Positions 2,176 to 50,455 of a stretch of DNA of 64,000 nucleotides are shown in pieces; within the stretch, counting starts at the first letter, position 1, and every line of letters starts with the position of its first letter. The stretch comes from Squalus acanthias (taxonomy: Eukaryota). The translations under genes and the position numbers were made by a program. The stretch covers positions 8,742,001 to 8,806,000 of the forward strand of contig CM059452.1 in assembly GCA_030390025.1 (NCBI GenBank), written 5' to 3'. The notes under the pieces were generated by a model. The model saw only the letters and a list, made by a program, of their open reading frames with translations, did not search any database and was not told where the DNA came from.

Positions 2176-2519
2176 GTTTATTGTCGGCTCTTGCTCTACA
2201 TACAGCACCGTGTGCGGTGTTATGACCCAGAAGTATTTCCTGGAATCCGCAGCTGTCAGCTGTGAAACCCTTAAAATGACGGCTCTGTAAGTTTTGGCCA
2301 AAGATGAGGTGAAGCGCCGTCTTGCAAAGTTCGCATCGTCACTGAACCGGTCGGTGCAGCGGATGAGGATATTCTCCGGGCCCACGGACCGACCCTCCCG
2401 GAACCGGGACAGGCAAACACTGGTCACCTCTGTATAGGAGCAGGTTATTGTCGCGATCTCTCCCTCCTGAGCGGTCACCTCTTCCATTGGCCAATGAGCG
2501 ATCCATCCAATGACGCTGT
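2176..2519 (-). pseudogene. TCR alpha/delta V pseudogene with degenerate RSS
   Basis: Translates as ...EEVTAQEGEIATITCSYT...RFTSSL...ILRVSQLTAADSRKYFW. Conserved Trp lost and second Cys replaced by Trp. Acceptor at 2520-2521. Nonamer ACAATAAAC at 2176-2184 with non-canonical heptamer (CACACGG at 23 nt or CACGGTG at 21 nt). Confidence 0.8.
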
Positions 2520-2689
2520 CTAAAGGACAGAGAGGGAAACGTTTAGATAAAGTTCCAATAACTGTGAGTAATAAATCCCAACAGGCGGTGAGATTGTCGC
2601 TCACACAACAAAAGCAGGATAGCATTTCAGAATAGGAGTTCTCAGAGTGACTGTATCCAAACAGAAATATATGAAGAGTTTTGATGAAG

Positions 2690-2920
2690 TAAATAATGAG
2701 AAACTGTTTCCACTGGCAGCAGGGTCGGTACCCAGAGGACAAACACATTGAAGATACTGGGCAAAAGAACCAGAGAGGAGATGAGGAGATTTGATTTTTT
2801 ACTCAGTGAGTTGTTGTGATCTGGAATTCACTGCCTGAAAGGGCGGTGGAAGCAGATTCAATAATAACATTCAAAGGGGAATTGGATAAATACTTAAAAA
2901 GAGACAAATTGCAGGAATAA
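2690..2920 (+). mobile_element. CR1 LINE 3' fragment
   Basis: 'EKLFPLA...TRGEMRR..F.Q.VV..WN.LP' similarity to the C-terminus of the intact CR1 ORF at 22973-25471. Confidence 0.7.
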
Positions 2921-3079
2921 AGATACCTATATATTAGAATTAACAGCACAATGTCTAATCACAAATACAGGGACCAGCTGAGACTCGCCCCTGATCACAA
3001 TGTCCCTCTGACGCGCTGATATGTTGAGCGACGCTCTGACAGTTTTTGTACAGGTCCAGCCCAGCTCCGTGTCTCTGTG

Positions 3080-3511
3080 GGGCTCAGTGCGCAGTAATAC
3101 ACCGCGGAGTCTGTCATTTGTATTTCAGACACATTCAGCGGGACGGTTCGTCTCGAAACATTCAGCTTCGCTGAAAAACGGTCCCCTGGGAATCTCCCTT
3201 CGTTCTTGCTGTGTCTTGTTCTCTTCAGCAGATACTCTATGGATCCGCTGGGATGTTGACGGTACCAGAATAGGTTAGGATTGCTGATGCTTGTAGCTGT
3301 ATAATTACAGTGCAACTGAACATCGTCTCCTTCACTGACTGTGGTTGCAGCCGGTGTCTGTGAAACGGAATCTCCTCGACAATGTCCTGCAAGAGCCCAG
3401 AGTGATATTAAATTAAACAATGTCACTTCACTGTGTCTATCCCCCAGAATCAGCCCGTCACCCCCAACACTTACCTGAGAAGTAAATCAGGGCAGTTAAA
3501 CAGAAATACAT
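3080..3511 (-). CDS. TRAV/TRDV: TCR alpha/delta V segment, apparently functional (leader 3475-3511, V exon 3080-3386)
   Basis: Leader MYFCLTALIYFS with GTAAGT donor, AG acceptor, DSVSQ...C...WYRQ...YYCALSP in frame. RSS CACAGAG-23-ACAAAAACT at 3041-3079. Confidence 0.92.
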
Positions 3512-3924
3512 TTCCCCACAGCTCAGGGGCTGCTCACGGGATGGTGCTGAGATCGACTGAGTAAAACTTCCTTTAATGAACATTCAGCACCTTCCAACGG
3601 GTTCAGTTCCTCACATTCACCTCTTGTGATGTGAAGGGAAAACTCCAAACTGTCTGTAGGTTTAAGACTCGTGTATCTGTCAAAGTCCGTCATTGACCCC
3701 GGCGGGGCAGAGCAGGTCTGTCTGACATTCGACGGTAATCTCACCCAACTCTTCCGCTTTCCTTCACTGGAGGGTTTTGCCGATTTTCCCCAAACATTGT
3801 TCAGTGTTGAATAAAGGTGGATCCGGATGGTTTTCTTCACTTTGGATCAACATATTGATAATCTTGTGTTCCGGGAACTGATCGCTTAAATATAATGTTT
3901 GATACAGATGTGAAATACAGTGTT

Positions 3925-4330
3925 GTGTAACTTTTGAACTTACCAATTAGGAGAGCTGCAGCTGTGACGAATAAATAAAATGTAACAGCCAACATGTTTG
4001 CAGGGAGTTGATGTCGGATGACGGGTTGAACCTGAATTTGTTTTAGTCAAGAGCTGGGAAGATGTTGACTAATATCCGGCCTCTCTGCCGATTGGTTCAT
4101 TCCTGACAGAGTCAGCAGGAGATATCCAATCAGCTCACTAGTCCTTTGTTCTCCAATTTATCCAATCAGCTCACAGCTCACGTGTTCTCCTCACAACAGA
4201 GAACTGGACGGGGATTAAACCCAATGTTGGCCCTTTAACAGTTTCAGTCTGTGAGGTGGGGCCAGTGAAAGGAATTTGTTAATATTGTTCTGGCAGCAGT
4301 GCCGGAGGCTCCCATTAAAGAGCTGCTCAC
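3925..4330 (+). promoter_or_regulatory. V-gene promoter module (tandem CCAAT plus CTTTGT TCF/LEF-like motifs); orphan copy with no V downstream
   Basis: Paralogous to 14692-15165, which runs into a V leader, and to inverted 17020-17345. Confidence 0.5.
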
Positions 4331-4987
4331 TGACCATTAGAACTACCCACAGCCGATATAAAGGGAGGTAGAGACGGCCAGTAGATCCTGAGGATTTGAA
4401 AACAACGATGCGGTAAATTAGACAAACGCGACCTTTTATATGAATGAAATGGGGAGTGACTGACAGGTTTGAGCAGAATGGGAGGGTGCAGACAACAGAT
4501 AGTTTTACTGATTCTGGGGCGAGCTGCTCATTACAAATATTTACAACGTATTCACGTTAACAATAACCACATTCACAATAACTTAATAGTTAACCATTTG
4601 GAACACAGACTTCCTTTTTGAATTTAATGCCTGCATTTAAAAATGTGTTTCTCTAATTCTTTAGTTAAATAAAATGAACAATGTTCTTAGTCTGTAACTC
4701 GCCCCGACACTCAACCCAACAACGAACTTCCCTCTGATGGCGATTATAGGGAAACGTTTTCAAAGTAAGAAGAGAAAGCGGGAGGCTCAGGGTAATGCGG
4801 GCCGCTTAAAGACACACTCGGGTGATACTGTCATAGAAAATAAGGAAATGGCAGATTTGCTGAATAATTATTTTGTATCGCTCTTCACATCTGCCCGTCG
4901 TTATATCCGGCTTCAGCAGGCGGAGCCTCTGATCTACAAAGCGGAGGGAGTTTCTGTACGAGGGTTTAACTGGTTTCCATCACTGTG

Positions 4988-5535
4988 AGTCCCAGGGCAC
5001 AGTAATAAACTGCAGTGTCGGTCAGCTGCAGCCCCGAGATGGTTAAACTGGTGAATTTAGTGGAGCTGTCGAGTTGTGCTGAAAAACGGGTTTGGGCAAA
5101 ATGTGCTTTATCTTCAGAACCGCTCGCGTATTTCATCAGAATAAACTCGGGCTGTGTGTCTGGGTGTTGCCGGTACCAGTACACATTATAGCTGCCGCCC
5201 TGTGTAGTATCATAGGTACAGTTTAAAGTCACCGCTTCTCCTTCTGTCTTAACTCCTGAGGACAGCGGCTGAGTGACAGAATCTCCAAGGCTCAGATCTG
5301 AAAAACATGTTCAAACAGGAAAAGATCAGACCGGCGGGTGTTTAAAATTCAGATTAAAAACATAATGGAAATGAGAGTAGAGATGAAATGTGCCTAATTC
5401 ACCATCATTATCACCATTTCACCAATAATAACACCTGGGTTACAGCAGTCAGGGGGATAATGGATGTTTACTGGGGAGGAATTACTTACTGAGAAGTGAT
5501 ATAATGATGAGGAGCGGTGCGAGCCGGTTCCGCAT
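4988..5535 (-). CDS. TRAV/TRDV: TCR alpha/delta V segment, apparently functional, with chimeric leader (leader 5490-5535, V exon 4988-5297)
   Basis: Leader MRNRLAPLLIIISLL with GTAAGT. V exon LSLGDSVTQ...NC...WYRQ...YYCALG. RSS CACAGTG-23-ACAGAAACT at 4949-4987. Confidence 0.9.
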
Positions 5536-6293: not shown

Positions 6294-6814
6294 GCGAGGA
6301 TGTGTTCACTGTGTTGGTTTCAGTATCGAGGCGTGTTACAGCCTGAGAACATTGTTCAGTAACTTTATTGAAGGGATTAAAGAAGCAGATTCGGAAACAG
6401 AGGCATTATTTTGCAATTATTATCAATTTTCATCATGATTTAGCAATGTTATTATTACTATTGATATGTTGTAAATATTAGCATTAAAAATTCCCACTCC
6501 ATCCTTCTGGGAAAGAACACGGGTTAAAATTCTAGAACTGGTATCAGGAAATCCCGCTTCACACACAGACAGTGATCAATGTGTGGAATAAACTTTCAGT
6601 TAGCATGGGGGAGGAAAATACACTGGAATCGTTGGATGCTGCAATGGAAGTCGAGAGCTGGGATCTCACTGAATGACACAGCAATCCCCAGCAGGAGCGA
6701 GTAGCCGTTCTCTCTTATAATTATCTGCGGTACTGCAAATTATCGGGAGTTGGCGTCAATAATTGCACCTCGCAATTAGCAGTACTCGCCACCAGAGGAC
6801 AGGGTGAAACAGGG

Positions 6815-7810
6815 AGAAACACAGAGTGTGAGCGGTCCGGTGTGAGTTCAGAGACAGTGTGAGCTGGTGTCAGTGAGAAACACTGAGTGTGAGCAGCACG
6901 GTGTGAGCTCAGAGACAGTGTGAGCTGGTGTCAGTGAGAGACCTGACTGTGGGCTTCCCGGTGTGAGCTCAGAGACAGTGTGAGCTGGTGTCAGTGAGAA
7001 ACACTGAGTGTGGGCGGTCCGGTGTGAGCTCAGAGACAGTGTGAGCTGGTGTCAGTGAGAAACACTGAGTGTGGGCGGCCCGGTGTGAGCTCAGAGACAG
7101 TGTGAGCTGGTGTCAGTGAGAAACACTGAGTGTGGGCGGCCCGGTGGAGCTAAGAGACAGTGTGAGCTGGTGTCAGTGAGAAACACTGAGTGTGAGCGGC
7201 CCGGTGTGAGCTCAGAGACAGTGTGAGCTAATGTCAGTGAGAAACACTGAGTGTGGGCGGCCCGGTGTGAGCTCAGAGACAGTGTGAGCTGGTGTCAGTG
7301 AGAAACACTGAGTGTGAGCGGCCCGGTGTGAGCTCAGAGACAGTGTGAGCTGGTGTCAGTGAGAAACACTGAGAGTGGGCGGCCCGGTGTGAGCTCAGAG
7401 ACAGTGTAAGCTGGTGTCAGTGAGAAACACTGAGTGTGAGCGGCCCGGTGTTAGCTGAGACAGTGTGAGCTGGTGTCAGTGAGAAACACTGAGTGTGGGT
7501 GGCCCGGTGTGAGCTCAGAGACAGTGTGAGCTGGTGTCAGTGAGAAACACTGAGTGTGAGCGGCCCGGTGTGAGCTCAGAGACAGTGTGAGCTGGTGTCA
7601 GTGAGAAACACTGAGTGTGAGCGGCCCGGTGTGAGCTCAGAGACAGTGTGAGCTGGTGTCAGTGAGAAACACTGAGTGTGAGCGGCCCGGTGTGAGCTCA
7701 GAGACAATGTGAGCTGGTGTCAGTGAGAAACATTGAGTGTGAGCGGCCCGATGTGAGCTCAGAGACAGTGTGAGCTGGTGTCAGTGAGAAACACAAAGTG
7801 GGCAGCCCGG
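6815..7810. repeat. 61-bp minisatellite, ~16 copies
   Basis: Unit cggtgtgagctcagagacagtgtgagctggtgtcagtgagaaacactgagtgtgagcggcc. Confidence 0.95.
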
Positions 7811-7988: not shown

Positions 7989-8322
7989 ATGCTCCTGATT
8001 TACAGAGTTTCCCTGCTGATTTACACTCTGATCTGCACGGATGTGAGCGGTGAAGATGAGGTGGAGCAGCTCCCTCGGCGGGTGGTTGTTAGTGAAGAGG
8101 GAATCGTGTCCATCAACTGCTCCGCTACTGCTGTGCTTAGCGTCCTGCACTGGTACAGACAGCACCCGGATCAGACCCTCCAGCATCTGGTGATGGCCAC
8201 AAGCGGGGCCGATCAACACGGGAGGATCACTGCTTCAATCGGGGGAGGCAATAAACTCAGTGCCCTGACTGTGAGAGACGCGCGAGTGACAGACAGCGCC
8301 ACCTATCTCTGCGCCGTGAGCC
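7989..8322 (+). CDS. TRAV/TRDV: TCR alpha/delta V segment with leader and V in a single exon (no leader intron), intact
   Basis: Continuous ORF MLLIYRVSLLIYTLICT-DVSG-EDEVEQ...INC...WYRQ...YLCAVS. RSS CACAGTG-23-ACAGAAACC at 8323-8361. Confidence 0.88.
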
Positions 8323-9151: not shown

Positions 9152-9627
9152 ATGTACAACCGTCTCGCACCGCTCCTCATCATTATATCACTTCTCAGTA
9201 AGTATTTCCTCCCCAGTTAAAATCCATTCTCGCCCTGACGGCTGTAACCCAGCTATGATAATTGGTGAAATGATCCGAATGATGATGGTGATGGTGATGA
9301 CTGTTACTATTATTTTATATTAGAATGGAGCCATCAAGACGCAGTGGAACAGCCGATTTCTGAAATAACGGTTGAAGAGGAAAGTAACGTCACACTAAAC
9401 TGCACCTTGAAAACAACCGCTGCTACCCTTTATGTGTACTGGTACAGTCAGCACCCCGGGCAGCCTCCACAGTACGTGTTTTATCTCTATGCAGGAATAG
9501 TAAACAGGAACCCTGAATTCACTGACCGATTCTCTTCTACTTTTAATAAAAGCAGCAAGATTACCGAGCTAACGATCAGCAATGCCCTGATCTCGGACAC
9601 CGCCGTGTATTTCTGTGCCATGAGCCC
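9152..9627 (+). CDS. TRAV/TRDV: TCR alpha/delta V segment, intact ORF (leader 9152-9197, V exon 9324-9627)
   Basis: Leader MYNRLAPLLIIISLL with GTAAGT, acceptor 9322-9323, DAVEQ...LNC...WYSQ...YFCAMSP. RSS CACACTG-24-ACAAAAACC at 9628-9667. Confidence 0.9.
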
Positions 9628-14068: not shown

Positions 14069-14284
14069 GGCTGTATAATTACAATACAACTGAACATCGT
14101 CTCCTTCATTTACTGTGGTTGCAGCCGGTGTCTGTGAACCGGAGTCTCCTCGCCCATGTCCTGCAAGAGCCCAGAGCGATATTAAATTAAACAATGTCAC
14201 TTCACTGTGTTTACCGCCCAGAATCAGCCCGTCACCCCAACACTTACCTGTGAAGCAAATCAGGGCAGTTGAACATAAATATAT
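14069..14284 (-). pseudogene. TCR alpha/delta V paralog of 3080-3511; start codon ATG->ATA; 3' part hidden in gap
   Basis: Near-identical leader, intron and FR1 (GHGRGDSGSQTPAATTVNEGDDVQLYCNYTA). Leader begins ATA TAT TTA. 14070-15165 duplicates 3295-4330. Confidence 0.75.
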
Positions 14285-15178: not shown

Positions 15179-15530
15179 ATGTTTCTTACTGATAATAATG
15201 GTCGTGCTGCCCGGTGAGTCTATGTTTAAAATATCGTATGTATTTCATGGGTTATATTTACTCCCAGACTTCTGACAGATTCAGTATTTTGTTACAATGG
15301 CGAAGCCTCATTTTCCCAGGATCCATCAGAATTAACGGTTCAGGAAGGACAGATCTGAATACTGAGCTCTCGTTACTCCACAGCCGATAGATTTCCCTAC
15401 CTCTTCTGGTACAACCAGTATCCCCGGGGAAGATCCGAGTTATTTAATGAGGAGATACAGCTCGGGGCAGGGAGTGAAGTCTCCAGATTTCCCAGACCGG
15501 TTCTCCGCTGATTTGGGCAAAGACACAGAC
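15179..15530 (+). pseudogene. TCR V pseudogene (family of 20412-20842), truncated in FR3, no RSS
   Basis: Frameshifted leader, mutated acceptor (ttacaa), QDPSELTVQEGQI* stop, then LFWYNQYP...SPDFPDRFSA before homology ends. Confidence 0.85.
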
Positions 15531-15690
15531 ACAAATACAACTCGTTGAAATAGAAACCTGGCTGTCTTTAGTCTCCGTGGGTTTGGGATCAAATTAACCC
15601 CACAGAAAGCAGCACAAAAGAACACTTAATGGAGCTGTAAATTCTCGCTGAGGTTTTTGTCCGGGGCCTTTGCTTTTATCTGACGCTGTG

Positions 15691-16225
15691 CCTCACTGCA
15701 CAGTAATAGACCGCTCCGTCCTCCACACTCAGGCTGCTTATATTGAGGTAACCGTACTTTCTAGACGTGTTAGCAGCTGCCAGATATTGTCCTGAGATTT
15801 CGTCTCCCTTCAGTGCTACCACTTTGCTAATTATCCAGCTTGGTGGCTGTGCCGGTTTCTGCCGATACCATTGCATGTAGTCAATATCCGGGCTTTTATA
15901 TTCACAATCTAACTGCACCGAACCCCCTGTTGACACGGCAATTGTCACCGGAGACTGAGTTACTGGATCTGCACACAGCCCGCCTGTGAAGATAGGGGAA
16001 CAGAAGAGCAGAAGATTAAATCGAAACTTGTGTCTATCTGTATGAGAGTGTGTAACCCTCCATCTACACAGCTGTCCATCATGTGGATATTTCTGATCGG
16101 TAATTGCACTAAATCCCTGCACACGCTCTTTGCATCAACCAGCTAACCTGTGTTTTAAATATAATCCAATACTTACTGTTCAACACAGCCGCCAGTATTA
16201 TTAGAAATTGACTGAATCTCTCACA
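15691..16225 (-). CDS. TRAV/TRDV: TCR alpha/delta V segment: intact V exon (15691-15983) and RSS; leader exon (ends 16177) lacks its own ATG
   Basis: GLCADPVTQSP...LDC...WYRQ...YYCAVR. RSS CACAGCG-23-ACAAAAACC at 15652-15690. Leader ...ERFSQFLIILAAVLN with GTAAGT at 16171-16176. Confidence 0.75.
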
Positions 16226-17489: not shown

Positions 17490-17835
17490 GTGCTGTGGTG
17501 CGGACTCGGTCTCACAGGGGCCGCTTGCAGCGATGCAGTTTGAAGGAGACTCGGTGACCAGTAATTACAGCAATTCGACCACTGCTCCTTCACATTCCTT
17601 ACAACTGTACCGTCAGGACCGCGACAATGGGCCAACATTGCTGATCTACAGTCCTTCTTTACGGAGATGTTTTCAAAGCAGAGGGCACGGGGGCTCGAAT
17701 TTCCGCATTTCACGACATTTCAGAAAGTGAGGGGAATTTCACCATCCGCGGCCTACGGCTGTCTGACAGCGCGGTGTATCACTGCGGGCTGAGAGACACA
17801 GTGACAGGAACCAGAGGGAGCCCCGTACACACACA
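17490..17835 (+). pseudogene. TCR alpha/delta V pseudogene; frameshifted, no leader exon seen, degenerate nonamer
   Basis: ADSVSQ...QFEGDSVTSNYS...LQLYRQD...[frameshift]...SEGNFTIRGLRLSDSAVYHCGLR. CACAGTG-23-ACACACACA at 17797-17835. Confidence 0.85.
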
Positions 17836-18585: not shown

Positions 18586-19060
18586 GTCTCAGGGCGCAGT
18601 AATAAACTGCAGTGTCGGTCAGCTGCAGCCCCGAGATGGTTAAACTGGTGAATTTAGTCCAGGTCTGGATTTCTGCAGAGAAACGGGTTTTATCAAAATC
18701 TGCTTTATGCTCAACACCATCAACTCCATCATGATCCTTCCACAGTATAAACTCGGGCTGTGTGTCTGGGTGGTTCCGGTACCAGTATAAATAATTAAAG
18801 GTGCTCCATTTAGTGTCATAGGTACAGTTTACAGTCACCGCTTCTCCTTCTGTCTTAACTCCCGGGGACAGCGGCTGAGTGACAGAATCTCCAAGACTCA
18901 GATCTGAAAAACATGTTCAAACAGGAAAAGATCAGACCGGCGGGTGTTTAAAATTCAGATTCAAACCATGTTAGAAATGAGAGAAAAGATTAAATGTGTT
19001 TGGTCCACAATTACCTGTCAGAAATGCCCCCCACACAGCCCAGATGCTGAGTAGCCGCAT
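18586..19060 (-). CDS. TRAV/TRDV: TCR alpha/delta V segment, apparently functional (leader 19015-19060, V exon 18586-18903)
   Basis: Leader MRLLSIWAVWGAFLT with GTAATT, DSVTQ...NC...WYRN...YYCALR. RSS CACACTG-23-ACAGAAACT at 18547-18585. Confidence 0.92.
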
Positions 19061-20125: not shown

Positions 20126-20411
20126 AGAGAAAGGACAAAAGGGGAGTTAAGGCGCCACAGACATGATTTGTGAAGTTCATTTTTATTATAAATACGAGTT
20201 GAAATCACCTAAAAGATCCCCAAGTGGACCTGACCTGTTCTTGCTGAGTGTTGTGACTTGTCGCTCTGTTAAGAATCTCCCTGTGACTCTCGCTGTGGAG
20301 GCTGAATTATCGCTGCTGGTTATCGATGTGAGAGCGCCCTCTGGTGATCACTAACTGGAACTCTCAGTGTGGGTTTTTGTACGGGATCCGCTATATCTCT
20401 GCAGCAGTGTG

Positions 20412-20842
20412 GGGCTCATGGCACAGAAATACACGGCGCTGTCGGTGACAAGAACCGCGGTGATATTTAAAGGAACCGTTTTGCTGTCTCTGTGCAAAAC
20501 AGCAGAGAACCGGACTGGGAAATCTGGAGACCGGTCTACCGTCCCCGAGCTATATATCCTCAGTAAATATCTCGGAGCTTCCCGGGATACTGGATGTACC
20601 AGAACAGAGTTGGAGCAGCTGCCGAGTAACTGCAGTTCAATATAATGTTTTTTCCTTGCTGAACCATTAATTCAGACGGATCCTGGGACACTGAATCTTT
20701 GCCACTCGTTCCTGTAACAAAACACAGAATGTGTCAAAAGTCTGGGAGTAAGGATAATCCGCGAAACACACAATGACCATTTACACATGTACTCACTGGA
20801 CAGCACGACCATTATTATCAGTATGGAACACGGGGAGCACAT
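20412..20842 (-). pseudogene. TCR alpha/delta V segment with a single 1-nt frameshift in a G run (leader 20797-20842, V exon 20412-20711)
   Basis: Leader MCSPCSILIIMVVLS, then DSVSQDPSEL...LNC...WYIQYPG[-1 at ~20580]APRYLLR...YFCAMSP. RSS CACACTG-24-ACAAAAACC at 20372-20411. CTCF motif at 20333-20347. Confidence 0.8.
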
Positions 20843-26297: not shown

Positions 26298-26425
26298 AAC
26301 TGAGTTCTGGAGACTCCTTCAAGCAGTGGCCAACAGAAGCCCAATATCTGGAAGGAACCTCAATGAGCATTAATTGTAACTATTCAACGTCCCTAGTGTA
26401 CCAAAACGCACACTGAGAGGGCGCT
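26298..26425 (+). pseudogene. TCR V fragment: FR1 only, deleted through to nonamer/CTCF flank
   Basis: Acceptor ttttctgcag, then LSSGDSFKQWPTEAQYLEGTSMSINCNYSTS, then gt-ACCAAAACG (26400-26408). Flank 26416-26820 is homologous to 9697-10070. Confidence 0.75.
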
Positions 26426-27339: not shown

Positions 27340-27830
27340 TGATTTAAGCAGCCATGAAGGACAGAGATTCCCACAATGCACAGCGGGCCAGAATAGGCCC
27401 AATGTAGACCACGGGCCGTGCTGCTCCCTGGGAGCACTGTTCGCACATGCGCAACTCGCCAACCGCTTCAATTATCGCTGTCTGTATCTTTATCTCTGTC
27501 GCATATTTTCTCCTTTTTATTAAGAAAGGGAGACCGTTTCTTTTGTGGGAATTGAAGTCACACGTCACACCGCACGTCACACAAACATGGCCGTCACCGC
27601 TTTGCCCTGCACTGGATGACGCCACAATGCTTTTCGCATGTCACAGCACCGCGATTGGCTGTTTTTCACATTCATTGAGGGTCAGAGGTCACGGGCAGTC
27701 TCCAGGCTCCGCTCAGCGCTAAAGATTCCCGTGTGTGCAGCCTGTGACCCCTGACCCAGGGCTGTGACCCCGGGGGGTCAGCTCGGAAAGTCTTCAATGG
27801 GCCCTGCACCGCCCGATATTCTCGGAGCCT
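27340..27830 (-). promoter_or_regulatory. CpG-rich promoter-like element, copy B (inverted relative to 640-1160)
   Basis: Reverse complement contains cacagccctgggtcaggggtcacaggctgcac, aacagccaatc, tgtgacgt (twice) and tgcgcatgtgcgaa, all shared with copy A. Confidence 0.5.
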
Positions 27831-28699
27831 GGGGACAGGATACAGAGCCGGGAGACACAGCGATGGTGGCTGAAGGTATTTGTCGCTTTGAGGGGAGGGA
27901 GAGAGATTGGGGCAGAGACATAGTTTAAACAGCAACTCAAACCATTTGCAAAGTTCCTTCTCAGCCCTTCAGAAGGGCCGCCTAATTCTTCCGTTCCTCA
28001 ACCCGATCATATATTCAACCACAGGAGACCTCGCGCCTGGACTCCAGGAGCTCAGAGGGAAAGCAGCACTGCATCAAAAGGAGAATGCCGGAAGATACTC
28101 GGGTCTGGCCAGAAACCTCTGGAGATGTTCCCGGGGCGGGGAGGCATCGAAAGAGTCCGAGGATCCGGTTAAGGACGTGGAGCAAAACTGCAGGGAAACA
28201 GGGATCAGAGATCTGAAGGTCACTGGCGGTACACAGTAGTGATGTTCACTGAGTTCATGGAGATGGTACAAGAGGGAATGGAGCAGAGCAGGGAGAAAGG
28301 TCGTCAGGGATACAGGAGACAGATGGTCAGGGTAAATGGGTGTGGCTCAGATTGGAGAAGGGTTGGAAGTGGTTACCCCAGTGCTGGGCCTACTCTTTCA
28401 TTGGTCTGTGTGGACCATTTGGACTCGGGACTCCATTAAAGGGGCTAATCCAAAACAAAAAATACATTCTATAGCGCCCTCCCCGAGAGGAGGGCTACAC
28501 TCGCTCACTTGGCCTGAACAAAACTGGAACGATATTCCATCAGAATTTGATTTTGTCCGACTGTCACACAACCTGTGTCCAGCGATGACCAAATATACCT
28601 GAGGACACCGCGTGATCCCTCATCCCCTCTCCCTCAAATACAATCTCTCCTTTCCTCTCTGCCCTGGGTGTCTGTGTGCGTATATAACAAGTGTGCAGC

Positions 28700-28880
28700 T
28701 GCCGTGGGAGTGTTTGATGGGACAGTGTAGAGGGAGCTTTGCTCTGTATCTAACACGTGCTGTACCTGCCCTGGGAGTGTTTGATGGGACAGTGTAGGGG
28801 GAGCTTCACTCTGTATCTAACCCGTGCTGTACCTGCCCTGGAAGTGTTTGATGGGACAGTTTAAAGGGAGTTTTACTCTG
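28700..28880. repeat. Short inverted copy (~3 units) of the 67-bp satellite
   Basis: gggagtgtttgatgggacagtgtagagggagcttt... is the reverse complement of the 42940-45030 unit. Confidence 0.85.
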
Positions 28881-29257
28881 CCATATGTTGTTCTCTATCA
28901 GGCTGTGATGGAGCAGAGCATACATCACTGCTTGTTAATAGAACCTGGCATGTGACTGTGACAGAGCATAATATTGGAAGAGACTGCGAGGTGAGCCTGG
29001 TCGTTGTGCAGTCATTCCGCCTCTGGGTCTTGACATGAAAAGGCAGGGGTAAAGGTGTCGTTACTCTGATGGAACACTGGGTGGCGCAGTAGCTACTTAT
29101 CCGAAGGGACTTGGGTTCAAACACAACCCAGACAGGACGGGTGAAAAATACCTGTCAGGGAAATAAAGCAAAGTGTGACTGGGAAAATGGAGCGGTGTGG
29201 AGGGGCCTTGGCGGAAGGAATTCAGCAAAGTCCAAGTAGTCAATTTGTCATTCCAGA

Positions 29258-29263
29258 TTTATT
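29258..29263 (-). terminator. Probable polyadenylation signal for membrane IgM mRNA
   Basis: AATAAA on the minus strand ~460 nt after the TM2 stop. Confidence 0.55.
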
Positions 29264-29719
29264 AACAATTTCACAGAGAACAATTTACAGTGAAGTTTTT
29301 AAAAAGTTAACACAAAGTGAATATAACAACAGAGCGTCACATTGAGACCAGAACACAGGCGGTCTGAGCTGCCAGTTATCTGTACAACTGTAACAGACAC
29401 CAGGGAGAGAAAACAGGGGCTCAGCATAAAGGGAAGGGAACAATTGTCAATTACGAATGAGAAAAGTGACTTATTTACACATGAAATATTCAAACAACGG
29501 TGAAACTCTAAGATACATTTATATTATAGCCACGATTATCTCACACATTTCAAACAGAGAGACGGAAATCCCGGTTCTGATTTTCTCAGCTACAGATTCG
29601 GATCTATTAACTGAAGGCATTTGACTCTGAGAATCACCAAGAGGACATATTTTATTTTCATGACACAGAGATGTTAATAAACAGATGAGGAAAATCCACG
29701 GCGTCCGAAATTCAACCGT

Positions 29720-29728
29720 TCACTTGAT
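29720..29728 (-). CDS. IGHM: IgM TM2 exon (IK-stop)
   Basis: cttttacag|ATC AAG TGA. Confidence 0.9.
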   Translation of the reverse strand: MK

Positions 29729-29868
29729 CTGTAAAAGAGGGATAAAAGAATGAAGCAGAGATTTAGTGGTTTGGGGCATTTATCTCAGGGTATTTATCAA
29801 TGAAACTTTTAGAGATTTGTCAAACCGCTTCAGTCAGATCGAAGTGTGAGTGGATTGAATCTTCTCAC

Positions 29869-29996
29869 CTTCACTAGAGTGACGGCAGCGCTGTAGGACA
29901 TGCTCAGGAAGAACAGGATGATGAATGTGGAAGCGGTTGTCCAGATGTTGCCGCTCTCTTCCTCATAGTCTTCAATCAAGATGTGGTCTGAGGAAT
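29869..29996 (-). CDS. IGHM: IgM TM1 exon
   Basis: (D)SSDHILIEDYEEESGNIWTTASTFIILFFLSMSYSAAVTLVK, a CART-type TM motif; AG and GTGAGA splice sites. Confidence 0.93.
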
Positions 29997-30639
29997 CTAC
30001 GGGGATGTAGAGGCGGAAATATATTCAGATCGTTTATTAATCCAAGATATCATGTTATTATTATATATTCCCTTCTTTTCCTTAAGGTATTAGTTTGTTC
30101 TCTAATTGAATTTTCAATGTATATCTTGTGTTAAGTTAATCTCTCTCAGCAATCTATCTCTGTTCCTAACTCCACAGTCGCTCTTCCTTTATGATCCTCC
30201 TATAGTCCGTGTTGGAAAAAACGACAGTTTTTTCTTCAATGTCACACGCTAATTGATTTTGCATCAATTTCATACAATCGATGATTCGGGAATAATATGA
30301 TGAAATATCGAGGGAGGTTTACTGATTGATATCGGTTATTTTAACGATAGTTTTAGATAGCTACTTATTTGAAGACTATCAAGGAGGCTGGGTAAGAGAT
30401 CAGATGTGAGTTATAATCTTGTTTATTTATTTGTTATGGCAATGCTCTGAACATAATTAACTTGTATCAGATTCCAACAAGAACATTGATTCAGTGTATG
30501 TGTAGGACCAGAATAGAGAAATGTGAGATTAAATGGTATCAGGAATTATTCATTCAGAACAATCGTTGGAAACTGTGTTCGTTCAAAAAGTGCATTTTAA
30601 TTCTACATTCGTCTATAGCCTGAGGTTTTTTCGCGCATT

Positions 30640-31719: not shown

Positions 31720-33320
31720 CCTCCCCTCTCTCTGGTGGTGGAGTGGGAGGTACAGTGGGTTAACAATTGCCCTTTCCCTCTCTCTGGTGGGGGAGTGGGA
31801 GGTACAGTGGGTTAACAATTGCCCTTTCCCCTCTCTCTGGTGGGGGAGTGGGAGGTACAGTGGGTTAACAATTGCCCTTTCCCCTCTCTCTGGTGGGGGA
31901 GTGGGGGTACAGTGGGTTAACAATTGCCCTTTCCCCTCTCTCTGGTGGGGGAGTGGGGGTACAGTGGGTTAACAATTGCCCTTTCCCCTCTCTCTGGTGG
32001 GGGAGTGGGGGTACAGTGGGTTAACAATTGCCCTTTCCCCTCTCTCTGGTGGGGAGTGGGGGTACAGTGGGTTAACAATTGCCCTTTCCCCTCTCTCTGG
32101 TGGGGGAGTGGGAGGTACAGTGGGTTAACAATTGCCCTTTCCCCTCTCTCTGGTGGGGGAGTGGGAGGTACAGTGGGTTAACAATTGCCCTTTCCCCTCT
32201 CTCTGGTGGGGGAGTGGGAGGTACAGTGGGTTAACAATTGCCCTTTCCCCTCTCTCTGGTGGGGGAGTGGGGGTACAGTGGGTTAACAATTGCCCTTTCC
32301 CCTCTCTCTGGTGGGGGAGTGGGGGTACAGTGGGTTAACAATTGCCCTTTCCCATCTCTGGTGGGGAGTGGGAGGTACAGTGGGTTAACAATTGCCCTTT
32401 CCCCTCTCTCTGGTGGGGGAGTGGGGGTACAGTGGGTTAACAATTGCCCTTTCCCCTCTCTGGTGGGGGAGTGGGAGGTACAGTGGGTTAACAATTGCCC
32501 TTTCCCCTCTCTCTGGTGGGGGAGTGGGGGTACAGTGGGTTAACAATTGCCCTTTCCCCTCTCTCTGGTGGGGGAGTGGGGGTACAGTGGGTTAACAATT
32601 GCCCTTTCCCCTCTCTCTGGTGGGGGAGTGGGAGGTACAGTGGGTTAACAATTGCCCTTTCCCCTCTCTCTGGTGGGGGAGTGGGGTACAGTGGGTTAAC
32701 AATTGCCCTTTCCCCTCTCTCTGGTGGGGGAGTGGGAGGTACAGTGGGTTAACAATTGCCCTTTCCCCTCTCTCTGGTGTGGGAGTGGGGGTACAGTGGG
32801 TTAACAATTGCCCTTTCCCCTCTCTCTGGTGGGGGAGTGGGGGTACAGTGGGTTAACAATTGCCCTTTCCCCTCTCTCTGGTGGGGAGTGGGAGGTACAG
32901 TGGGTTAACAATTGCCCTTTCCCCTCTCTCTGGTGGGGGAGTGGGGGTACAGTGGGTTAACAATTACCCTTTCCCCTCTCTCTGGTGGGGGAGTGGGAGG
33001 TACAGTGGGTTAACAATTGCCCTTTCCCCTCTCTCTGGTGGGGGAGTGGGGGTACAGTGGGTTAACAATTGCCCTTTCCCCTCTCTCTGGTGGGGGAGTG
33101 GGGGTACAGTGGGTTAACAATTGCCCTTTCCCCTCTCTCTGGTGGGGGAGTGGGAGGTACAGTGGGTTAACAATTACCCTTTCCCCTCTCTCTGGTGGGG
33201 GAGTGGGGGTACAGTGGGTTAACAATTGCCCTTTCCCCTCTCTCTGGTGCGGGAGTGGGGGTACAGTGGGTTAACAATTGCCCTTTCCCCCTCTCTCTGG
33301 TGGGGGATTGGGGGTTACAG
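31720..33320. repeat. ~52-bp G-run minisatellite, ~30 copies, in the Cmu4-TM1 intron
   Basis: Unit ggtacagtgggttaacaattgccctttcccctctctctggtgggggagtggg(a). Confidence 0.95.
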
Positions 33321-33751: not shown

Positions 33752-34143
33752 TCATTGACAAGAATTGACGGTGTCCATCAGAACAAGGGAAATGTTGACA
33801 AAACTGGGTTTACCGCTGGATTTATTAACCGTTCTGTTGATGATCTTCAAGGGGATCGCTTCATGTCCCACCACACAGGAGTAAGAAGCGCCGCTGGCCC
33901 ACTCCTCCGCTGCAATGGATAACAGGCTGTACATGAAGAAGGAACTGCTGCCGTTCTCCGCCATCACCTCGGTGTTCTTGTAGTTGCCGGAATTCACCGG
34001 CTTGTCATTGACGGTCCACTTGACGAAGATCTCTCGGGGGGAGAAACCTCTCACTAAGCAGGTGAGACTGACGAACCTCTGAGCGGAGACTTCTTCTGCC
34101 GGGGGCAGGAGGACAGACACGGACGGTTCCCGCGGATCTTTAG
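33752..34143 (-). CDS. IGHM: IgM Cmu4 exon plus secretory tailpiece (internal TM donor after 33814)
   Basis: [13 protein letters not shown]...[16 protein letters not shown]...[11 protein letters not shown]...SS|[20 protein letters not shown], with NIS glycosylation site and penultimate Cys. Confidence 0.97.
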
Positions 34144-34661: not shown

Positions 34662-34970
34662 CTTTTTCCTTGTGGATGGAATCTCTTATAGGAGTCGGCA
34701 TATCCTGATGGCTCACCACGCAGTAGAACTCATCCCCACTCAGCCAGGCTTGTGTCGAGATGTTTAAGTTGCTGATCACGCTGTTGGGAGCCTCTCCGGG
34801 TTGGACGGCAATCTCTGATTTCAAAGTCTCCTTTTCTCGGGTCCAGGACACGTTGACTCCATAAGGAGCATTAGACACGACGCAGGTTAAGGTCACCGTC
34901 GCCTCCAGTAAAACCTGTTCTAGTGACGGTTGCGGAAGAGTGATTTCTGGATCGTTGCATTGGATCTCAT
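34662..34970 (-). CDS. IGHM: IgM Cmu3 exon
   Basis: [33 protein letters not shown]...W...[22 protein letters not shown]; 309 nt, phase-1 splice sites. Confidence 0.95.
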
Positions 34971-37578: not shown

Positions 37579-37896
37579 CCTTAGATCTGGAGATGTTTCT
37601 GCTTTGGGTGACCCCTTGATGAGAGACCTGGCAGGTATAGACTGAGTCGGCGAACCAATCCCTGGCGGGGAATGTCAGCCGACTGGTCGCCGAGAAGTTC
37701 CCGTTCACTTCAAAGACGGGAGAGGTAACGAAGCCTAAATCCATGAGTTGTCCTTTCTTCAGCCAATTCACGGTCAGTGACTTTGGACGGAAATCGATGA
37801 TTGAACAGACGGCGGTTACAGACCTGCTGCTGATGATTTCTTCATTGGAACTCAGGGTGAGGATCACAGTTGGAGGGACGATATCACGTTTCCAAC
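37579..37896 (-). CDS. IGHM: IgM Cmu2 exon
   Basis: [12 protein letters not shown]...VCSIIDFRP...VNW...[20 protein letters not shown]; 318 nt, AG/GTAAGT. Confidence 0.95.
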
Positions 37897-38019
37897 CTTC
37901 AAAAGAACACATGTTAATGAAATTCCTTATAAAATAAATGATTAAGAAATGCAAAGTGTCCTTATATTTTAACAGGCCCTTTACTGTCAGGCTCACACTA
38001 ACCTGGCACTTCCAGAGAG

Positions 38020-39420
38020 CAGAACTTTGCACAGTATTCTAAGAGCGATATGGAGACCGGAACTCTACACAGTACAGGAAGTGTGCTATGGAGACCAGAA
38101 CTCTACACAGTACTCTAAGTGTGATATGGAGAACAGAACTGTGCACAGTACACTAAGTGTGATATGGAGAACAGAACTGTGCACAGTACACTAAGTGTGA
38201 TATGGAGAACAGAACTGTGCACAGTACACTAAGTGTGATATGGAGAACAGAACTGTGCACAGTACACTAAGTGTGATATGGAGAACAGAACTGTGCACAG
38301 TACACTAAGTGTGATATGGAGAACAGAACTGTGCACAGTACTCTAAGTGTGATATGGAGACGAGAACTGTGCACAGTACACTAAGTGTGATATGGAGAAC
38401 AGAACTGTGCACAGTACACTAAGTGTGATATGGAGAACAGAACTGTGCACAGTACACTAAGTGTGATATGGAGAACAGAACTGTGCACAGTACACTAAGT
38501 GTGATATGGAGAACAGAACTGTGCACAGTACACTAAGTGTGATATGGAGAACAGAACTGTGCACAGTACACTAAGTGTGATATGGAGAACAGAACTGTGC
38601 ACAGTACTCTAAGTGTGATATGGAGACGAGAACTGTGCACAGTACACTAAGTGTGATATGGAGAACAGAACTGTGCACAGTACATTAAGTGTGATATGGA
38701 GAACAGAACTGTGCACAGTACATTAAGTGTGATATGGAGAACAGAACTGTGCACAGAATTGTAAGTGTGATATGGAGACCAGAACTGTGCACAGTACACT
38801 AAGTGTGATATGGAGAACAGAACTGTGCACAGTACACTAAGTGTGATATGCAGAACAGAACTGTGCACAGTACATTAAGTGTGATATGGAGAACAGAACT
38901 GTGCACAGAATTGTAAGTGTGATATGGAGAACAGGACTGTGCACAGTACACTAAGTGTGATATGGAGAACAGAACTGTGCACAGTACACTAAGTGTGACA
39001 TGGAGACCAGAACTGTGCTCAGCACTCCAAGTGTGATATGGAGACCAGGACTGTGCACAGTATTGTAAGTGTGATATGGAGAACAGAACTGTGCACAGAA
39101 TTGTAAGTGTAATATGGAGACGAGAACTGTGCACAGTACACTAAGTGTGATATGGAGACTACAACTGTTCACAATACTCTAAGTATGTTGTGGAGACCAG
39201 AACTGTGCACAGTATTGTAAATCTGATATGGAGGCCAGAAATGCGCTCAGCACTCCAAGTGTGATATGGAGACCAGAACTGTGCTCAATGCACTAAGTGT
39301 AATATGGAGACTGGAACTCTGCAAAGTACACTAAGTGTGATATGGAGACCAGAAGTGTGCACAGTACTCTATACGTGGGATATGGAGACCAAAACTGTCC
39401 ACAATACTCCAAGTGTGGAC
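38020..39420. repeat. 38-bp minisatellite (~36 copies) in the Cmu1-Cmu2 intron, apparently CR1-derived
   Basis: Unit gtgtgatatggagaacagaactgtgcacagtacactaa. The minus strand reads HL.YCAQF(W/C)SPY, like CR1 ORF2 HLEYCVQFWSPY. Confidence 0.92.
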
Positions 39421-39495: not shown

Positions 39496-39795
39496 CTGGC
39501 ATTTTGACGCTTAAGTCCGACCCACTTTGTCGAACCTGGCAGTAGATTGTGCTGCTCCCCACCTCTGACTCGGTGATGGTTAACTGGCTGCTCAGGGTGT
39601 AGGTTCCCTTCTTGTTGAACACTGACGGGTAGGTCTTCAATCCAGTGGTGATCGGCTCTTTATCTTTACTCCAGGAAAGGCTGGTGATTTCCGGGAAGTA
39701 GTCCATCGCCAAACAGCCGTAGGTGACGGGGCCGCCGGTGTTGGGTTGTTCACAGGAGGAGAGCAGGGCGTAGAGGGTGGGAGGAGACTGTGTCG
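39496..39795 (-). CDS. IGHM: IgM Cmu1 exon
   Basis: [34 protein letters not shown]...SW...IYCQVR...MP; 300 nt, AG/GTCAGT; light-chain-linking Cys position retained. Confidence 0.95.
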
Positions 39796-42939: not shown

Positions 42940-45030
42940 CAGATACAGAGTAAAGCTCCCTCTGCACTGCCCTGCCATACGCTGTACCCTCAGGTATAGG
43001 AAGGGATTGATTCCGAGCAACGCCAAGTCTGCACAGCACTGTCAAACACTCCGGGTAAGGCACCGCACTGGTTAAATACAGAGTAAAGCCCCATCTACAT
43101 TGCACAATCAAACATTCCCAGGGCAGGTACAACATGGGCTAGATACAGAGTAAATTCTCCCTCTACACTGAACCATCAAAGATTCACGGGGCATAACAGC
43201 ACGGGTTAGATACAGAGTAAAGCTCCGTCTACACTGTCCAATCAAATCAAACACTCCCAGGGCAGGTACAGCACGGGTTCGATACAGAGTAAAGCTCCGT
43301 CTACACTTTCCAATCAAACACTCCCAGGGCAGGTACAGTACGGTTAGATACAGAGTAAATCGCCCTCTAAACTGTCCCATCAAACAATTCTGGGGCAGCT
43401 ACAGCATGGGTTACACACAGTAAAGCTCCCTCTACACTGTCCCATCAAACACTCCCAGGGCAGGTACAGCACGGGTTAGATACAGAGTAAAGCTCCCATC
43501 AAACACTCCCAGGGCAGGTACAGCACGGATTAGATGCAGAGTAAAGCTCCCTCTACACTGTCCCATCAAGCACTCCCAGGACAAGTACAGCACGGGTTAG
43601 ATACAGAGTAAAGCTCCCACTACACTGTCCCATCAAACACTCCCAGGACAGGTACAGCACGGGTTAGATACAGAGTAAAGCTCCCTCTACACTGTCCCAT
43701 CAAACACTCCCAGGACAAGTACAGCACGGGTTAGATACAGAGTAAAGCTCCCTCTACACTGTCCCATCAAACACTCCCAGGGCAGGTACAGCACGGTTAG
43801 ATACAGAGTAAAGCTCCCTCTACACTGTCCCATCAAACACTCCCAGGGCAGGTACAGCACGGGTTAGATACAGAGTAAAGCTCCCTCTACACTGTCCCAT
43901 CAAACACTCCCAGGGCAGGTACAGCACGGGTTAGATACAGAGTAAAGCTCCCTCTACACTGTCCCATCAAACACTCCCAGGGCAGGTACAGCACGGGTTA
44001 GATACAGAGTAAAGCTCCCTCTACACTGTCCCATCAAACACTCCCAGGGCAGGTACAGCACGGGTTAGATACAGAGTAAAGCTCCCTCTACACTGTCCCA
44101 TCAAACACTCCCAGGGCAGGTACAGCACGGGTTAGATACAGAGTAAAGCTCCCTCTACACTGTCCCATCAAACACTCCCAGGGCAGGTACAGCACGGGTT
44201 AGATACAGAGTAAAGCTCCCTCTACACTGTCCCATCAAACACTCCCAGGGCAGGTACAGCACGGGTTAGATACAGAGTAAAGCTCCTCTACACTGTCCCA
44301 TCAAACACTCCCAGGGCAGGTACAGCACGGGTTAGATACAGAGTAAAGCTCCCTCTACACTGTCCCATCAAACACTCCCAGGGCAGGTACAGCACGGATT
44401 AGATGCAGAGTAAAGCTCCCTCTACACTGTCCCATCAAGCACTCCCAGGACAGGTACAGCACGGGTTAGATACAGAGTAAAGTTCCCTCTACACTGTCCC
44501 ATCAAACACTCCCAGGGCAGGTACAGCACGGGTTAGATACAGAGTAAAGCTCCCTCTACACTGTCCCATCAAGCACTCCCAGGACAGGTACAGCACGGGT
44601 TAGATACAGAGTAAAGCTCCCTCTACACTGTCCCATCAAACACTCCCAGGGCAGGTACAGCACGGGTTAGATACAGAGTAAAGCTCCCTCTACACTGTCC
44701 CATCAAACACTCCCAGGGCAGGTACAGCACGGATTAGATGCAGAGTAAAGCTCCCTCTACACTGTCCATCAAACACTCCCAGGGCAGGTACAGCACGGGT
44801 TAGATACAGAGTAAAGCTCCCTCTACACTGTCCCATCAAACACTCCCAGGGCAGGTACAGCACGGGTTAGATACAGAGTAAAGCTCCCTCTACACTGTCC
44901 CATCAAACACTCCCAGGGCAGGTACAGCACGGGTTAGATACAGAGTAAAGCTCCCTCTACACTGTCCCATCAAACACTCCCAGGGCAGGTACGGCACGGG
45001 TTAGAAACTGATTAAAGCTCCTTCTACAGT
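42940..45030. repeat. 67-bp satellite, ~30 copies, in the JH-Cmu1 intron
   Basis: Unit cagagtaaagctccctctacactgtcccatcaaacactcccagggcaggtacagcacgggttagata. Confidence 0.95.
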
Positions 45031-48518: not shown

Positions 48519-48566
48519 CTGCAGTCACCGTCACCATGGTGCCTTGGCCCCAGTAGTCCATGGCGT
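48519..48566 (-). CDS. IGHJ: IgH JH segment
   Basis: AMDYWGQGTMVTVTA with GTAAGA donor. 23-RSS: heptamer 48567-48573, nonamer ACAATAACC at 48597-48605. Confidence 0.97.
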
Positions 48567-48957
48567 CACAGTGTTACATTCCCCGGGCTGGGTCACACAA
48601 TAACCGGCTCTGTGTAAAACAGAGAGAAATCCAACATTAGTTTAAATATTCACATCCCAGAGACAAAGTAAAGTCACGATGGATCTTCATAAAATGATAA
48701 ATGTGTTAATGGATACTTTTCACTCTTTATAAATTCCCTGATGTTTTATATTTCACAGAGTAACCCTTGAACAGTTAATGAAATCACCAACTGATCAATG
48801 ATTAATTATCACAGTTTATCCATGTTAAACTGTGCTAGTGGACAGTGCTGGACACAAATAGGACTTCACTGCATCTACAGTTGGATTGTGAAAGCGACAC
48901 TGACCCAGCCTCACTCAATTAGTGCTGATGGTTTTTGTATTGACAGTAACTGCTGTG

Positions 48958-48970
48958 CCACCCAGTGTAC
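48958..48970 (-). other. IGHD: IgH D2 segment (GTACACTGGGTGG), 12/12 RSS
   Basis: V-side CACAGTG-12-CCAAATACT (48971-48998); J-side CACAGCA-12-ACAAAAACC (48930-48957). Confidence 0.93.
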
Positions 48971-49348
48971 CACAGTGAGACACGCCGTGCCAAATACTCC
49001 GGCGGACTGTTAACAGTAAAATACAGAGATGAAATTCCAGAGCCTCTCAAAACCCTGATTCCGACTCCCCTAAGAGTGCATCAGTGAGATATTTCAGTTT
49101 GTGCTGGTCATTATCTTTATAAAGGGGATTGGAAAACTTCTGAAGCATCTGTGCAGATTTAACACGACAATCAACACTAATAAAGCAGAACACTTTTACA
49201 CATTTTGAGACATCTTCATTCATTTTACCCATTATATTAATTTAAGCCTCATTTTCTCCGCCGCTCCTGCCGTGGCAGTGATCGCAGGTGTGAGCAAACT
49301 CGCTGTCTGGGGTTTTTGTATGAGGAGCTCGCTCTGTACAGCACCGTG

Positions 49349-49362
49349 ACCCACTGTAGTAC
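49349..49362 (-). other. IGHD: IgH D1 segment (GTACTACAGTGGGT), 12/22 RSS
   Basis: V-side CACAGTG-12-ATAAATACT (49363-49390); J-side CACGGTG-22-ACAAAAACC (49311-49348). Confidence 0.93.
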
Positions 49363-49792
49363 CACAGTGACAGGAACCCGCATAAATACTGCACTCACTC
49401 CCTGTTCAGTGCCGCCTCTCAACATTCACTTCAAATAGACATTCACTTCTGATCTAGTTTAGAATTTATCCAACAGTTTACACAACGTATTAGAAAGTGA
49501 ACACAGTCCCAGCCCACTCCCTCCAGGTATCAATCATATTGAAACGAGCATTAACTCCAGCTCTGCCATTGCTGACACTGTGAACAGTAAACATGAGCAC
49601 AGCCAAAACCTCTCTTCAGTACATCGGTTACTGTGCTAGATTTTTACCATTGAATTTTCACTCTGTTAATTCAGTAAGAAGCTGTTAAGATCGCGTTTAA
49701 TACAATTACTGACCGTCAGATTATGATGGAAGTTGTTGAATTTCCCCTCGTTCTGTTCTTGTACGGGTCCAGCCCTGGTTCCTCTCGCTGTG

Positions 49793-50274
49793 ACCCCCAT
49801 CTTGCACAGTAATAGATGGCGGTGTCTTCGGTCCTCAGGTTCGTCATGTCCAAAGCGAAGATGCTGTTTGAAGTGTCTTTGGACGCAGTAAATCGACTCT
49901 GGATCCCTGGGGCGTAGTTATTGCTCGATGACCTGAGGTACTCAAGCAGCCACTCCAGCCCCTGTCCGGGAACCTGTCGGACCCAGAACATCCAGTGGCT
50001 GCCAAGAGTGAACCCGCTGGTTTTACAGGTCAGTCTCAGGGAGCCTCCGGGACTCCCGGTCTCTGCCACTGGCTGAGTCAACACGATATCCGACTGGACA
50101 CCTGTCAAAACAATCAAAAACCCCGAGGATTAATCCTGGAGAAATGATTCCTGACACTGTAACATTCCAGAGTGGGACTAACACTGAGACAGTAACAGTG
50201 AGAGACTTGGACAATAAAAACTACTCACGGGATAAGAAAGCAAGCAACAGACTGAGAGAAATCGCCGACCTCAT
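49793..50274 (-). CDS. IGHV: IgH VH segment of the IgM cluster (leader 50229-50274, V exon 49793-50101)
   Basis: Leader [22 protein letters not shown]...LTCKTSGF...[12 protein letters not shown]...YYCAR. RSS CACAGCG-23-ACAAGAACA at 49754-49792. Confidence 0.97.
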
Positions 50275-50359
50275 CCTCCTGGCAATGTGTGGGAAATGGT
50301 TCTGGCAAGAACTCACTGAGCAAACCCGCTCCCGGACTGTTGTATTCCGGTCCCAGTGA

Positions 50360-50455
50360 CCGGCCATTAAATACCCGGTAGAAGGGGCGAGGTTACAGGC
50401 GCCGCCTATTGATTCCCTGATTGAGGCGGCTACTGGATCCACGTCACACCTTCCA
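50360..50455 (-). promoter_or_regulatory. VH promoter: TATA-like TATTTAAT, CAAT-like motifs and CRE/decamer-like GTGTGACGTG; no octamer seen
   Basis: Motifs at 50366-50373, ~50405-50425 and 50440-50449, upstream of ATG 50274. Confidence 0.6.

Follow-up and report, generated by a model that had tools for sequence, protein, structure and literature searches.

A complete IgM heavy-chain gene and a set of T-cell receptor (TCR) V segments lie side by side in the 64,000-nucleotide stretch of the Squalus acanthias genome analysed here (the window; C29:8742001-8806000, where C29 denotes its scaffold; coordinates without a prefix are window positions). The minus strand from 50274 to 29720 carries an intact, unrearranged IgM minicluster with the order leader-V-D1-D2-J-Cmu1-4-secretory tail-TM1-TM2, while 12 TCR-type V pieces occupy 2.2-26.4 kb of the window on both strands. 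We consider it highly probable that this is an ordinary shark IgM minicluster, likely serving mainly B cells, which sits inside a TCR alpha/delta V array and has been duplicated with neighbouring V segments as a cassette. The segment 7401-55277, which includes both the IgM gene and TCR V segments, is colinear, in inverted orientation, with C29:8520633-8563851 at 90-98% identity, and 11623-49112 matches C29:5961532-5994263, likewise inverted, the comparison covering these two sister blocks. The junction between both gene types (26280-30000) has, among 40 candidates scored, two further complete copies at 98% and several more that are split in two, and its copies differ from one another by 2-8% plus indels. 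Since IgM and V have been co-duplicated as a 48 kb block and the junction recurs, a one-off misassembly is unlikely.

The IgM gene as a repeated unit

Within scaffold C29, 31 Cmu4 exon matches with 89-100% identity (18 on the plus and 13 on the minus strand, one of them broken) extend over 4.3 Mb, from 5.97 to 10.27 Mb, with a median spacing of 103 kb; this count leaves out more distant, stop-bearing Cmu4-like copies at C29:16.6-18.2 Mb. TCR V segments accompany them along the array. A search with a single TCR V query, in which the best 150 of 1607 candidates were scored, returned at least 109 matches on C29, so that at least 24 of the 30 Cmu4 intervals contain one or more, and at least 20 of the 31 Cmu4 exons have a V match no more than 20 kb 3' of them. 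An earlier note on this DNA had presented it as a hybrid Ig/TCR locus. That such a locus would be singular or surprising is not supported, as the window holds one of some 31 copies and PMC12227049, in the parts covered, already describes the arrangement as well as the donor idea.

The copies vary in germline-joining state as well as in VH family. Among the 28 VH matches on C29 (5.80-10.25 Mb), eight, including that of the window, show full V-D1-D2 spacing (one of the eight is cut by a gap and another has a broken VH), 18 lack at least one intervening segment and two have no D/J match. The 18 joined-looking clusters fall into five patterns, namely one VD-D-J, two VD-DJ, eight VDD-J, two V-DDJ and five VDDJ; joins were read directly in two clusters on C29 and one on scaffold C559, and the rest were deduced from segment spacing. 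A free V-side signal is kept in 10 of the 28, most sister clusters having none because they are germline-joined, a known shark trait according to the parts of PMC5192425 and PMC4279169 covered. The VH genes at C29:5801887, 5961091 and 9126106 are only 55-58% identical to the window VH, yet their D/J regions reach 94-98% to those of the window, and the Cmu4 exons of almost every cluster in the array resemble each other at 95-100%. Such VH divergence over near-identical D-J-C suggests either V exchange or D-J-C homogenisation.

Similar clusters were detected on the unplaced scaffolds C449, C559, C1780, C3620 and C3332. C449 was considered as separate evidence for the junction and rejected, since it follows the window at 94-98% over 28824-53885 but has another left flank beyond 28824. 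Only two short N runs occur within C29:8702001-8836000, and these cannot be read as contig ends, which corrects the previous description of 14069-52109 as one gap-free contig; the 500-N run elsewhere on C29 resembles a scaffold gap.

Anatomy of the IgM minicluster

All IgM elements of the window are on the minus strand. The leader exon (50229..50274) starts with ATG, ends at a GT donor and is in frame with V, and the leader-V splice is present in contigs of the family. It is followed by the VH exon (49793..50101), an open frame recognised as Pfam V-set, whose protein is identical to one on scaffold C449, and by a recombination signal sequence (RSS) with a 23-base spacer (49754..49792; CACAGCG-23-ACAAGAACA, with a non-consensus nonamer core). 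D1 (49362-49349; with its signals 49311..49390) has a 12-RSS on the V side and a 22-RSS on the J side, D2 (48970-48958; 48930..48998) has a 12-RSS on each side, and JH (48566-48519; 48519..48605 with its 23-RSS) carries the WGQG motif and a GT donor. The VH, the two D and the single JH share one orientation, with 1.3 kb from the V end at 49793 to the J end at 48519, and the signal set (V 23; 12-D1-22; 12-D2-12; J 23) is compatible with V-D1-D2-J joining. The RSS consensus used in judging these signals is one which we assume to apply.

Constant exons Cmu1 (39496..39795), Cmu2 (37579..37896) and Cmu3 (34662..34970) are followed by Cmu4 with the secretory tail (33752..34143), a C1-set domain with a penultimate Cys, a stop at 33752 and AATAAA at 33723 and 33713. 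The membrane form leaves Cmu4 through an internal donor at 33814 and continues in the transmembrane exons TM1 (29869..29996) and TM2, the latter with the stop (29720..29728) and with AATAAA at 29656 and 29263. AG/GT borders were found at all exon ends, and the secretory and membrane spliced forms are both stop-free in translation. Of the ten PDB entries that best matched the last constant exon, seven are named as mu heavy constants. Four constant exons, the penultimate Cys of the secretory form and membrane exons reached via a donor inside C4 are what a shark IgM minicluster has. The intact V-D-D-J-Cmu1-4-sec-TM1-TM2 gene previously claimed is therefore borne out by exon borders, open spliced forms and a full RSS set, the nonamer of VH being its blemish; re-reading gave the same first and second complementarity-determining regions (CDR) of VH. 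Judged by its sequence, the gene is intact and would be B-cell-competent, as had been proposed.

The 400 bp upstream of VH contain a TGACGT motif and no octamer. A shared promoter was considered and rejected, for a cAMP-response-element-like motif stands 5' of only 6 of 18 V exons against a fraction of 0.23 of random windows, no clear enrichment. Tandem repeats occupy window 6800-7800, 31720-33320, 38015-39420, 43030-45030 and 55850-56420, and the repeat of the J-Cmu1 intron (unit of ~67 bases) recurs as a satellite of tens of kb at C29:5.755-5.845 Mb.

TCR V segments around the IgM gene

Half of the 12 V pieces in the window keep an open V exon, the conserved Cys and Trp and a 23/24 RSS, the signals lying at 3079, 4987, 8323, 9628, 15690 and 18585. 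These are the TCR alpha/delta V genes at 3080..3372 (minus, 23-RSS), 4988..5292 (minus, 23-RSS; 86% to the V at position 23092 of the unplaced scaffold C911 and 68% to that of the public chain P0005, which has a constant region matching the C-delta of C911), 7989..8322 (plus, 23-RSS, with the leader within the same exon), 9323..9627 (plus, 24-RSS), 15691..15969 (minus, 23-RSS) and 18586..18904 (minus; 70% to the V of P0005), the last being the intact V closest to the IgM gene. The other pieces are a degenerate V at 2218..2499 (minus), whose frame is open and whose conserved Trp and second Cys are lost, the 5' part of a V at 14069..14146 (minus; the remainder is unreadable in the window copy), pseudogenes at 15308..15533 and 17503..17797 (both plus), a frameshifted alpha/delta V with a 24-RSS at 20411..20697 (minus), which has an open paralog at C29:5985509, and a remnant at 26312..26392 (plus). 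This remnant holds framework 1 only, followed by a deletion reaching to an RSS-side remnant, and a longer copy of its family exists at C29:8565478.

Measured to the TM2 stop of the IgM gene, the remnant lies at 3.3 kb, the frameshifted V at 9.0 kb and the closest intact V at 10.8 kb. The ~3 kb to a last TCR V fragment given earlier thus refers to a real framework-1 remnant, and the ~9 kb to a near-intact V is right as a distance, although that V is frameshifted and the closest intact one is farther away.

Leftward of the window, over 40 kb, most V pieces keep open frames and good RSSs. The V families compared are 68-76% identical to V domains on delta-type constant regions in the public proteins P0005, P0009 and P0011, those of the flanks reaching 74-76% to V domains of public delta-type chains. 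On the other side of the IgM gene, a NAR-TCR cassette (C29:8828863-8833100, minus) is located outside the window, ~40 kb beyond VH, and comprises a leader, a NAR-type V, a 12-RSS, a J with a 23-RSS and a supporting V-delta, the latter sharing 74-76% identity with its counterpart in public three-domain delta chains. In this cassette (locus L028) the NAR V runs directly into the 12-RSS, a single J following, so that it is apparently germline V-D joined. Further V segments stand between VH and the cassette. As V segments and the NAR-TCR cassette are present on the VH side too, the IgM gene is embedded in the V array rather than placed at its edge; the adjacency described previously holds, whereas the edge position does not. 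The NAR-TCR cassette, a marker of a TCR delta V region, and the occurrence of these V families on delta-type constant regions support, at the level of sequence, a TCR alpha/delta nature of the array and speak against an orphon character. A PDB search with one of the window TCR V genes matched mostly antibody fragments and brought no classification.

TCR delta and alpha genes on a second scaffold

A delta-type constant query matched the unplaced scaffold C911 (863,720 bases) at 582985 and 782356, besides a relic on C559. The match at 582985 is C-delta, with its TM at 586264; that at 782356 is taken for C-alpha because it lies beyond the second J array, presuming the canonical order. A single D-delta was found in 500-605 kb of C911, in the form 12-D-23 at 557898-557905, followed by 15 J motifs at 558-577 kb; eight more J motifs were sampled at 770-778 kb, and then comes C-alpha. 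The TCR D, J and C genes which the earlier note would have located on the scaffold of the window have hence all been found, albeit on C911 and with none found on C29.

C911 opens with the 3' part of another IgM gene (Cmu1 at 120-419, Cmu4 at 4560-4951, TM2 at 18772), and an intact V follows 4.3 kb after TM2, at C911:23092. This second scaffold thus independently shows an IgM 3' end and then V, upstream of TCR delta. The TCR V query used on C29 gave 24 matches on C911 up to 317 kb, again among the best 150 of 1607 candidates. Between 374 and 519 kb, directly before D-delta, 30 VH-like matches are arranged in tandem with a period of ~4 kb. Five segments of the main family that were read have each a near-consensus 23-RSS, and no D signal was detected beside the VH-like segments in RSS scans. 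Five of the 30 make up the sister clade of the IgM VH rows, and the window VH is 55-61% identical to this array.

On C29, a 500-N gap (5802929-5803428) directly follows a VH-D1-D2, and C911 begins ~120 bases before Cmu1. The gap, in satellite-rich surroundings, is a possible, unproven joining point of both scaffolds. That C911 adjoins the array of C29, as the single-chromosome table of the stingray would suggest by analogy, appears plausible to us.

C559 holds a third TCR alpha/delta-like constant exon of the C1-set type (loci L004/L031; C559:90279-90590 and 92672-92770, plus), with 27% identity to C-delta over 82 aa and 45% to C-alpha over 33 aa. In the TM-like exon 2 kb after it a stop comes early; C559:70-110 kb showed no J motif, and the protein search returned no close relative. 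In a paralog at C29:8630358-8639583 (minus), which lies ~100 kb to the left of the window, the C exon is disrupted. These copies are likely relics of a TCR C gene within the array of IgM and V genes. Further immunoglobulin genes include a putative second heavy-chain isotype at C29:16.7-17.7 Mb, whose last exon is 45% identical to Cmu4, another putative isotype on C284, and many C1-type exons on C3243, a candidate UrIg2; IgW, IgNAR and UrIg2 belong to the linkage group of the published complex discussed below.

Discussion

The organisation described here is an instance of the antigen receptor complex (AgRC) reported by Flajnik et al. 2025 (Sci Adv; PMC12227049), in which, according to the sections covered, TCR alpha/delta-type V exons are located between IgH clusters, as they are on C29. 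In that paper the interleaving and the donor idea are already in print, the proximity of IgH and TCR genes being offered as the basis for the joining of IgM/W VH to the D of TCR delta. Among the entries of its Table S1 that were covered, IgM, TCRa/dV and NARTCR V alternate over 8.9-17.1 Mb in the great white, and in one case 7 kb lie between an IgM V and a TCRa/dV; the order IgM-TAILV-TCRD-TCRA, which that of C911 resembles, is found on a scaffold of the catshark; and chromosome 26 of the stingray carries V/IgM/NARTCR, Ig-TCRd V, C-delta and C-alpha together. Close Ig-TCR linkage has also been described in the elephant shark (PMC3964593, in the part covered). Unlike the base-level view taken here, PMC12227049 works with gene models, and the sections covered hold neither a co-duplicated IgM and V cassette nor joining states; on the other hand, the PSMB5 linkage of the AgRC was not recovered in the Squalus acanthias assembly. 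No description of IgM and TCR V as a co-duplicated cassette was found in the literature searched, though Deiss 2019, Ott 2021, Criscitiello 2010 or supplements may cover it. The cassette, together with the finding that only eight of the 28 VH clusters on C29 are unjoined, is possibly new.

As a gene, the window cluster does not differ from the shark IgM minicluster (VH-D1-D2-JH-Cmu), which in the parts of PMC5192425 covered is known in open and germline-joined forms spaced 120 to >200 kb apart. It has one V, two D and one J in ~2 kb and one C set, and many of its sisters are joined; the median spacing on C29 is slightly lower and the intervals are filled with TCR V segments. In B cells, the window cluster would rearrange V-D1-D2-J within itself, as reviewed for sharks in the same source. 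In T cells, D-delta, J-delta or J-alpha would provide the 12-RSS for joining with V segments of the array; both deletion and inversion would be expected, because the segments face both ways, and the window VH, with its free 23-RSS, could constitute an extra V-delta.

Expression data bear on this gene family. No sequencing run annotated as RNA was found to contain the DNA of the window cluster, and the data consisted of contigs from three runs, guessed to be RNA, of two studies, and four contig sets were compared with the V-D-J stretch. The presumed-RNA contigs cover leader, V and J far deeper than the introns, and at the level of the family they contain joints of the V-N-J type, the spliced leader and a loose end of J that agrees with the initial 27 nt of Cmu1.

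Several points weigh against, or limit, the view that the window holds an ordinary, functional IgM minicluster within a TCR alpha/delta array. The CDR letters of the contigs differ from those of the window VH, and therefore they attest expression of the IgM family and not of the window copy; the nonamer of this VH departs from the presumed consensus by a change in its central A run. Some V families of the window are only ~41-44% identical to delta-chain references and were assigned by context. C-delta and C-alpha were not found on C29 with the delta-type constant query, so that their linkage in cis to the window is presumed, and C911 was read at 0-30, 365-385, 500-605, 640-650, 770-800 and 854-864 kb, with gaps possible in between. 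Marker genes did not place C911 either. DAD1 usually adjoins TCR C-alpha in bony vertebrates; here it was found at C8:78893176-78895029, a scaffold other than C29 and C911, and the 28 proteasome-family matches, whose subunit identity is not settled, include none on C29 or C911 and some on small scaffolds. Furthermore, C449, in spite of its identical VH protein, does not support the window junction.

The last point touches on whether the arrangement could be an artefact of assembly, either by a misjoin at the junction or by haplotypes stacked as copies on one scaffold. Satellite-rich, near-identical repeats, several unplaced scaffolds with similar clusters, the departure of C449 and the 500-N gap that cuts a cluster at C29:5802929 would favour such an origin. 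We nevertheless regard it as very improbable, given that junction DNA exists in many copies differing in sequence and by indels, that these differ in joining state and VH family, that C911 repeats the order on its own and that the same interleaving appears in other species in the parts of PMC12227049 covered. Even if the junction is real, the copy number of 31 may be somewhat inflated. It could also be argued that the TCR V segments beside IgM are passengers, carried along while the IgM genes multiplied and mostly unused, being too far from D, J and C or shielded from them. Six of the 12 window pieces are indeed broken or unreadable, a scan of 72 kb of window flanks yielded no TCR J motif, and D, J and C were not found on C29. 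We judge this improbable nonetheless, as open frames and good RSSs are kept by the other half of the pieces and by most V of the 40 kb on the left, their families occur on delta-type chains of other sharks, and a NAR-TCR cassette, which needs the D-J-C of TCR delta, lies nearby.

A dual role of the window gene, in which VH or VH-D1 would regularly be joined in cis to D-delta or J-delta, adds to the IgM minicluster reading rather than excluding it, and we see it as conceivable, falling a little short of an even chance. Such donation is allowed because the VH 23-RSS and the D1 22-RSS fit, under the 12/23 rule, the 12-RSS 5' of D-delta and that of J-delta on C911, in agreement with the compatibility proposed earlier. 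The window cluster is moreover one of the few that are unjoined and that retain a V-side signal, and nurse shark chains with IgM and IgW V exons on TCR D-J-C are described in the parts of PMC5931798 and PMC12227049 covered. These chimeric Ig-TCR delta chains, or 'trans-rearrangements' (Criscitiello et al. 2010, as cited in the covered parts of PMC5931798, PMC6795676 and PMC12227049), set a precedent for an IgM V on TCR delta D-J-C, which the window RSSs would permit. Conversely, no joint to TCR delta was found among the loose ends listed in the four contig sets, a weak negative, as 121 more were not listed. An Ig-like V on a delta-type C was present in 2 of the 14 public proteins compared, both automatic gene models, and the best rows of these two were 63-69% identical to the VH-like array of C911 against 54-57% to the window VH, again weak evidence. 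The 30 VH-like segments directly before D-delta, with a near-consensus 23-RSS in the five read, offer a rival supply. They fit the description of TAILV (2019, as cited in the covered part of PMC12227049), and exceed by far the six Ig-TCRd V given there for the stingray; the window VH is not a TAILV, because it has its own D-D-J-Cmu cluster. Finally, the nonamer of this VH deviates from the consensus, and no more than 0.4 kb separates it from the D1 of its cluster. From the signals alone, the window VH is allowed as an extra V-delta, and its actual use in TCR delta appears nearly as likely as its restriction to IgM.

Beyond the single gene, we tentatively propose, as a less likely extension, that the mixed IgM and TCR V cassette has been the unit of growth of the array, so that the number of antibody clusters and the TCR V repertoire would have increased jointly over >4 Mb. 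Under this proposal, the few unjoined clusters, including that of the window, would serve as V-delta in cis, 'trans-rearrangement' would be the use of V genes within one locus, and germline joining would remove most other clusters from use by T cells. Overall, our analysis adds to the AgRC a base-level view in which IgM clusters and TCR V segments appear duplicated together, and names those clusters, 10 of 28, whose VH signal is free. Whether chimeric Ig-TCR delta chains stem from complete IgM genes, from the dedicated VH-like array or from both thereby becomes a question that can be tested, as does whether their use depends on distance, orientation or joining state.

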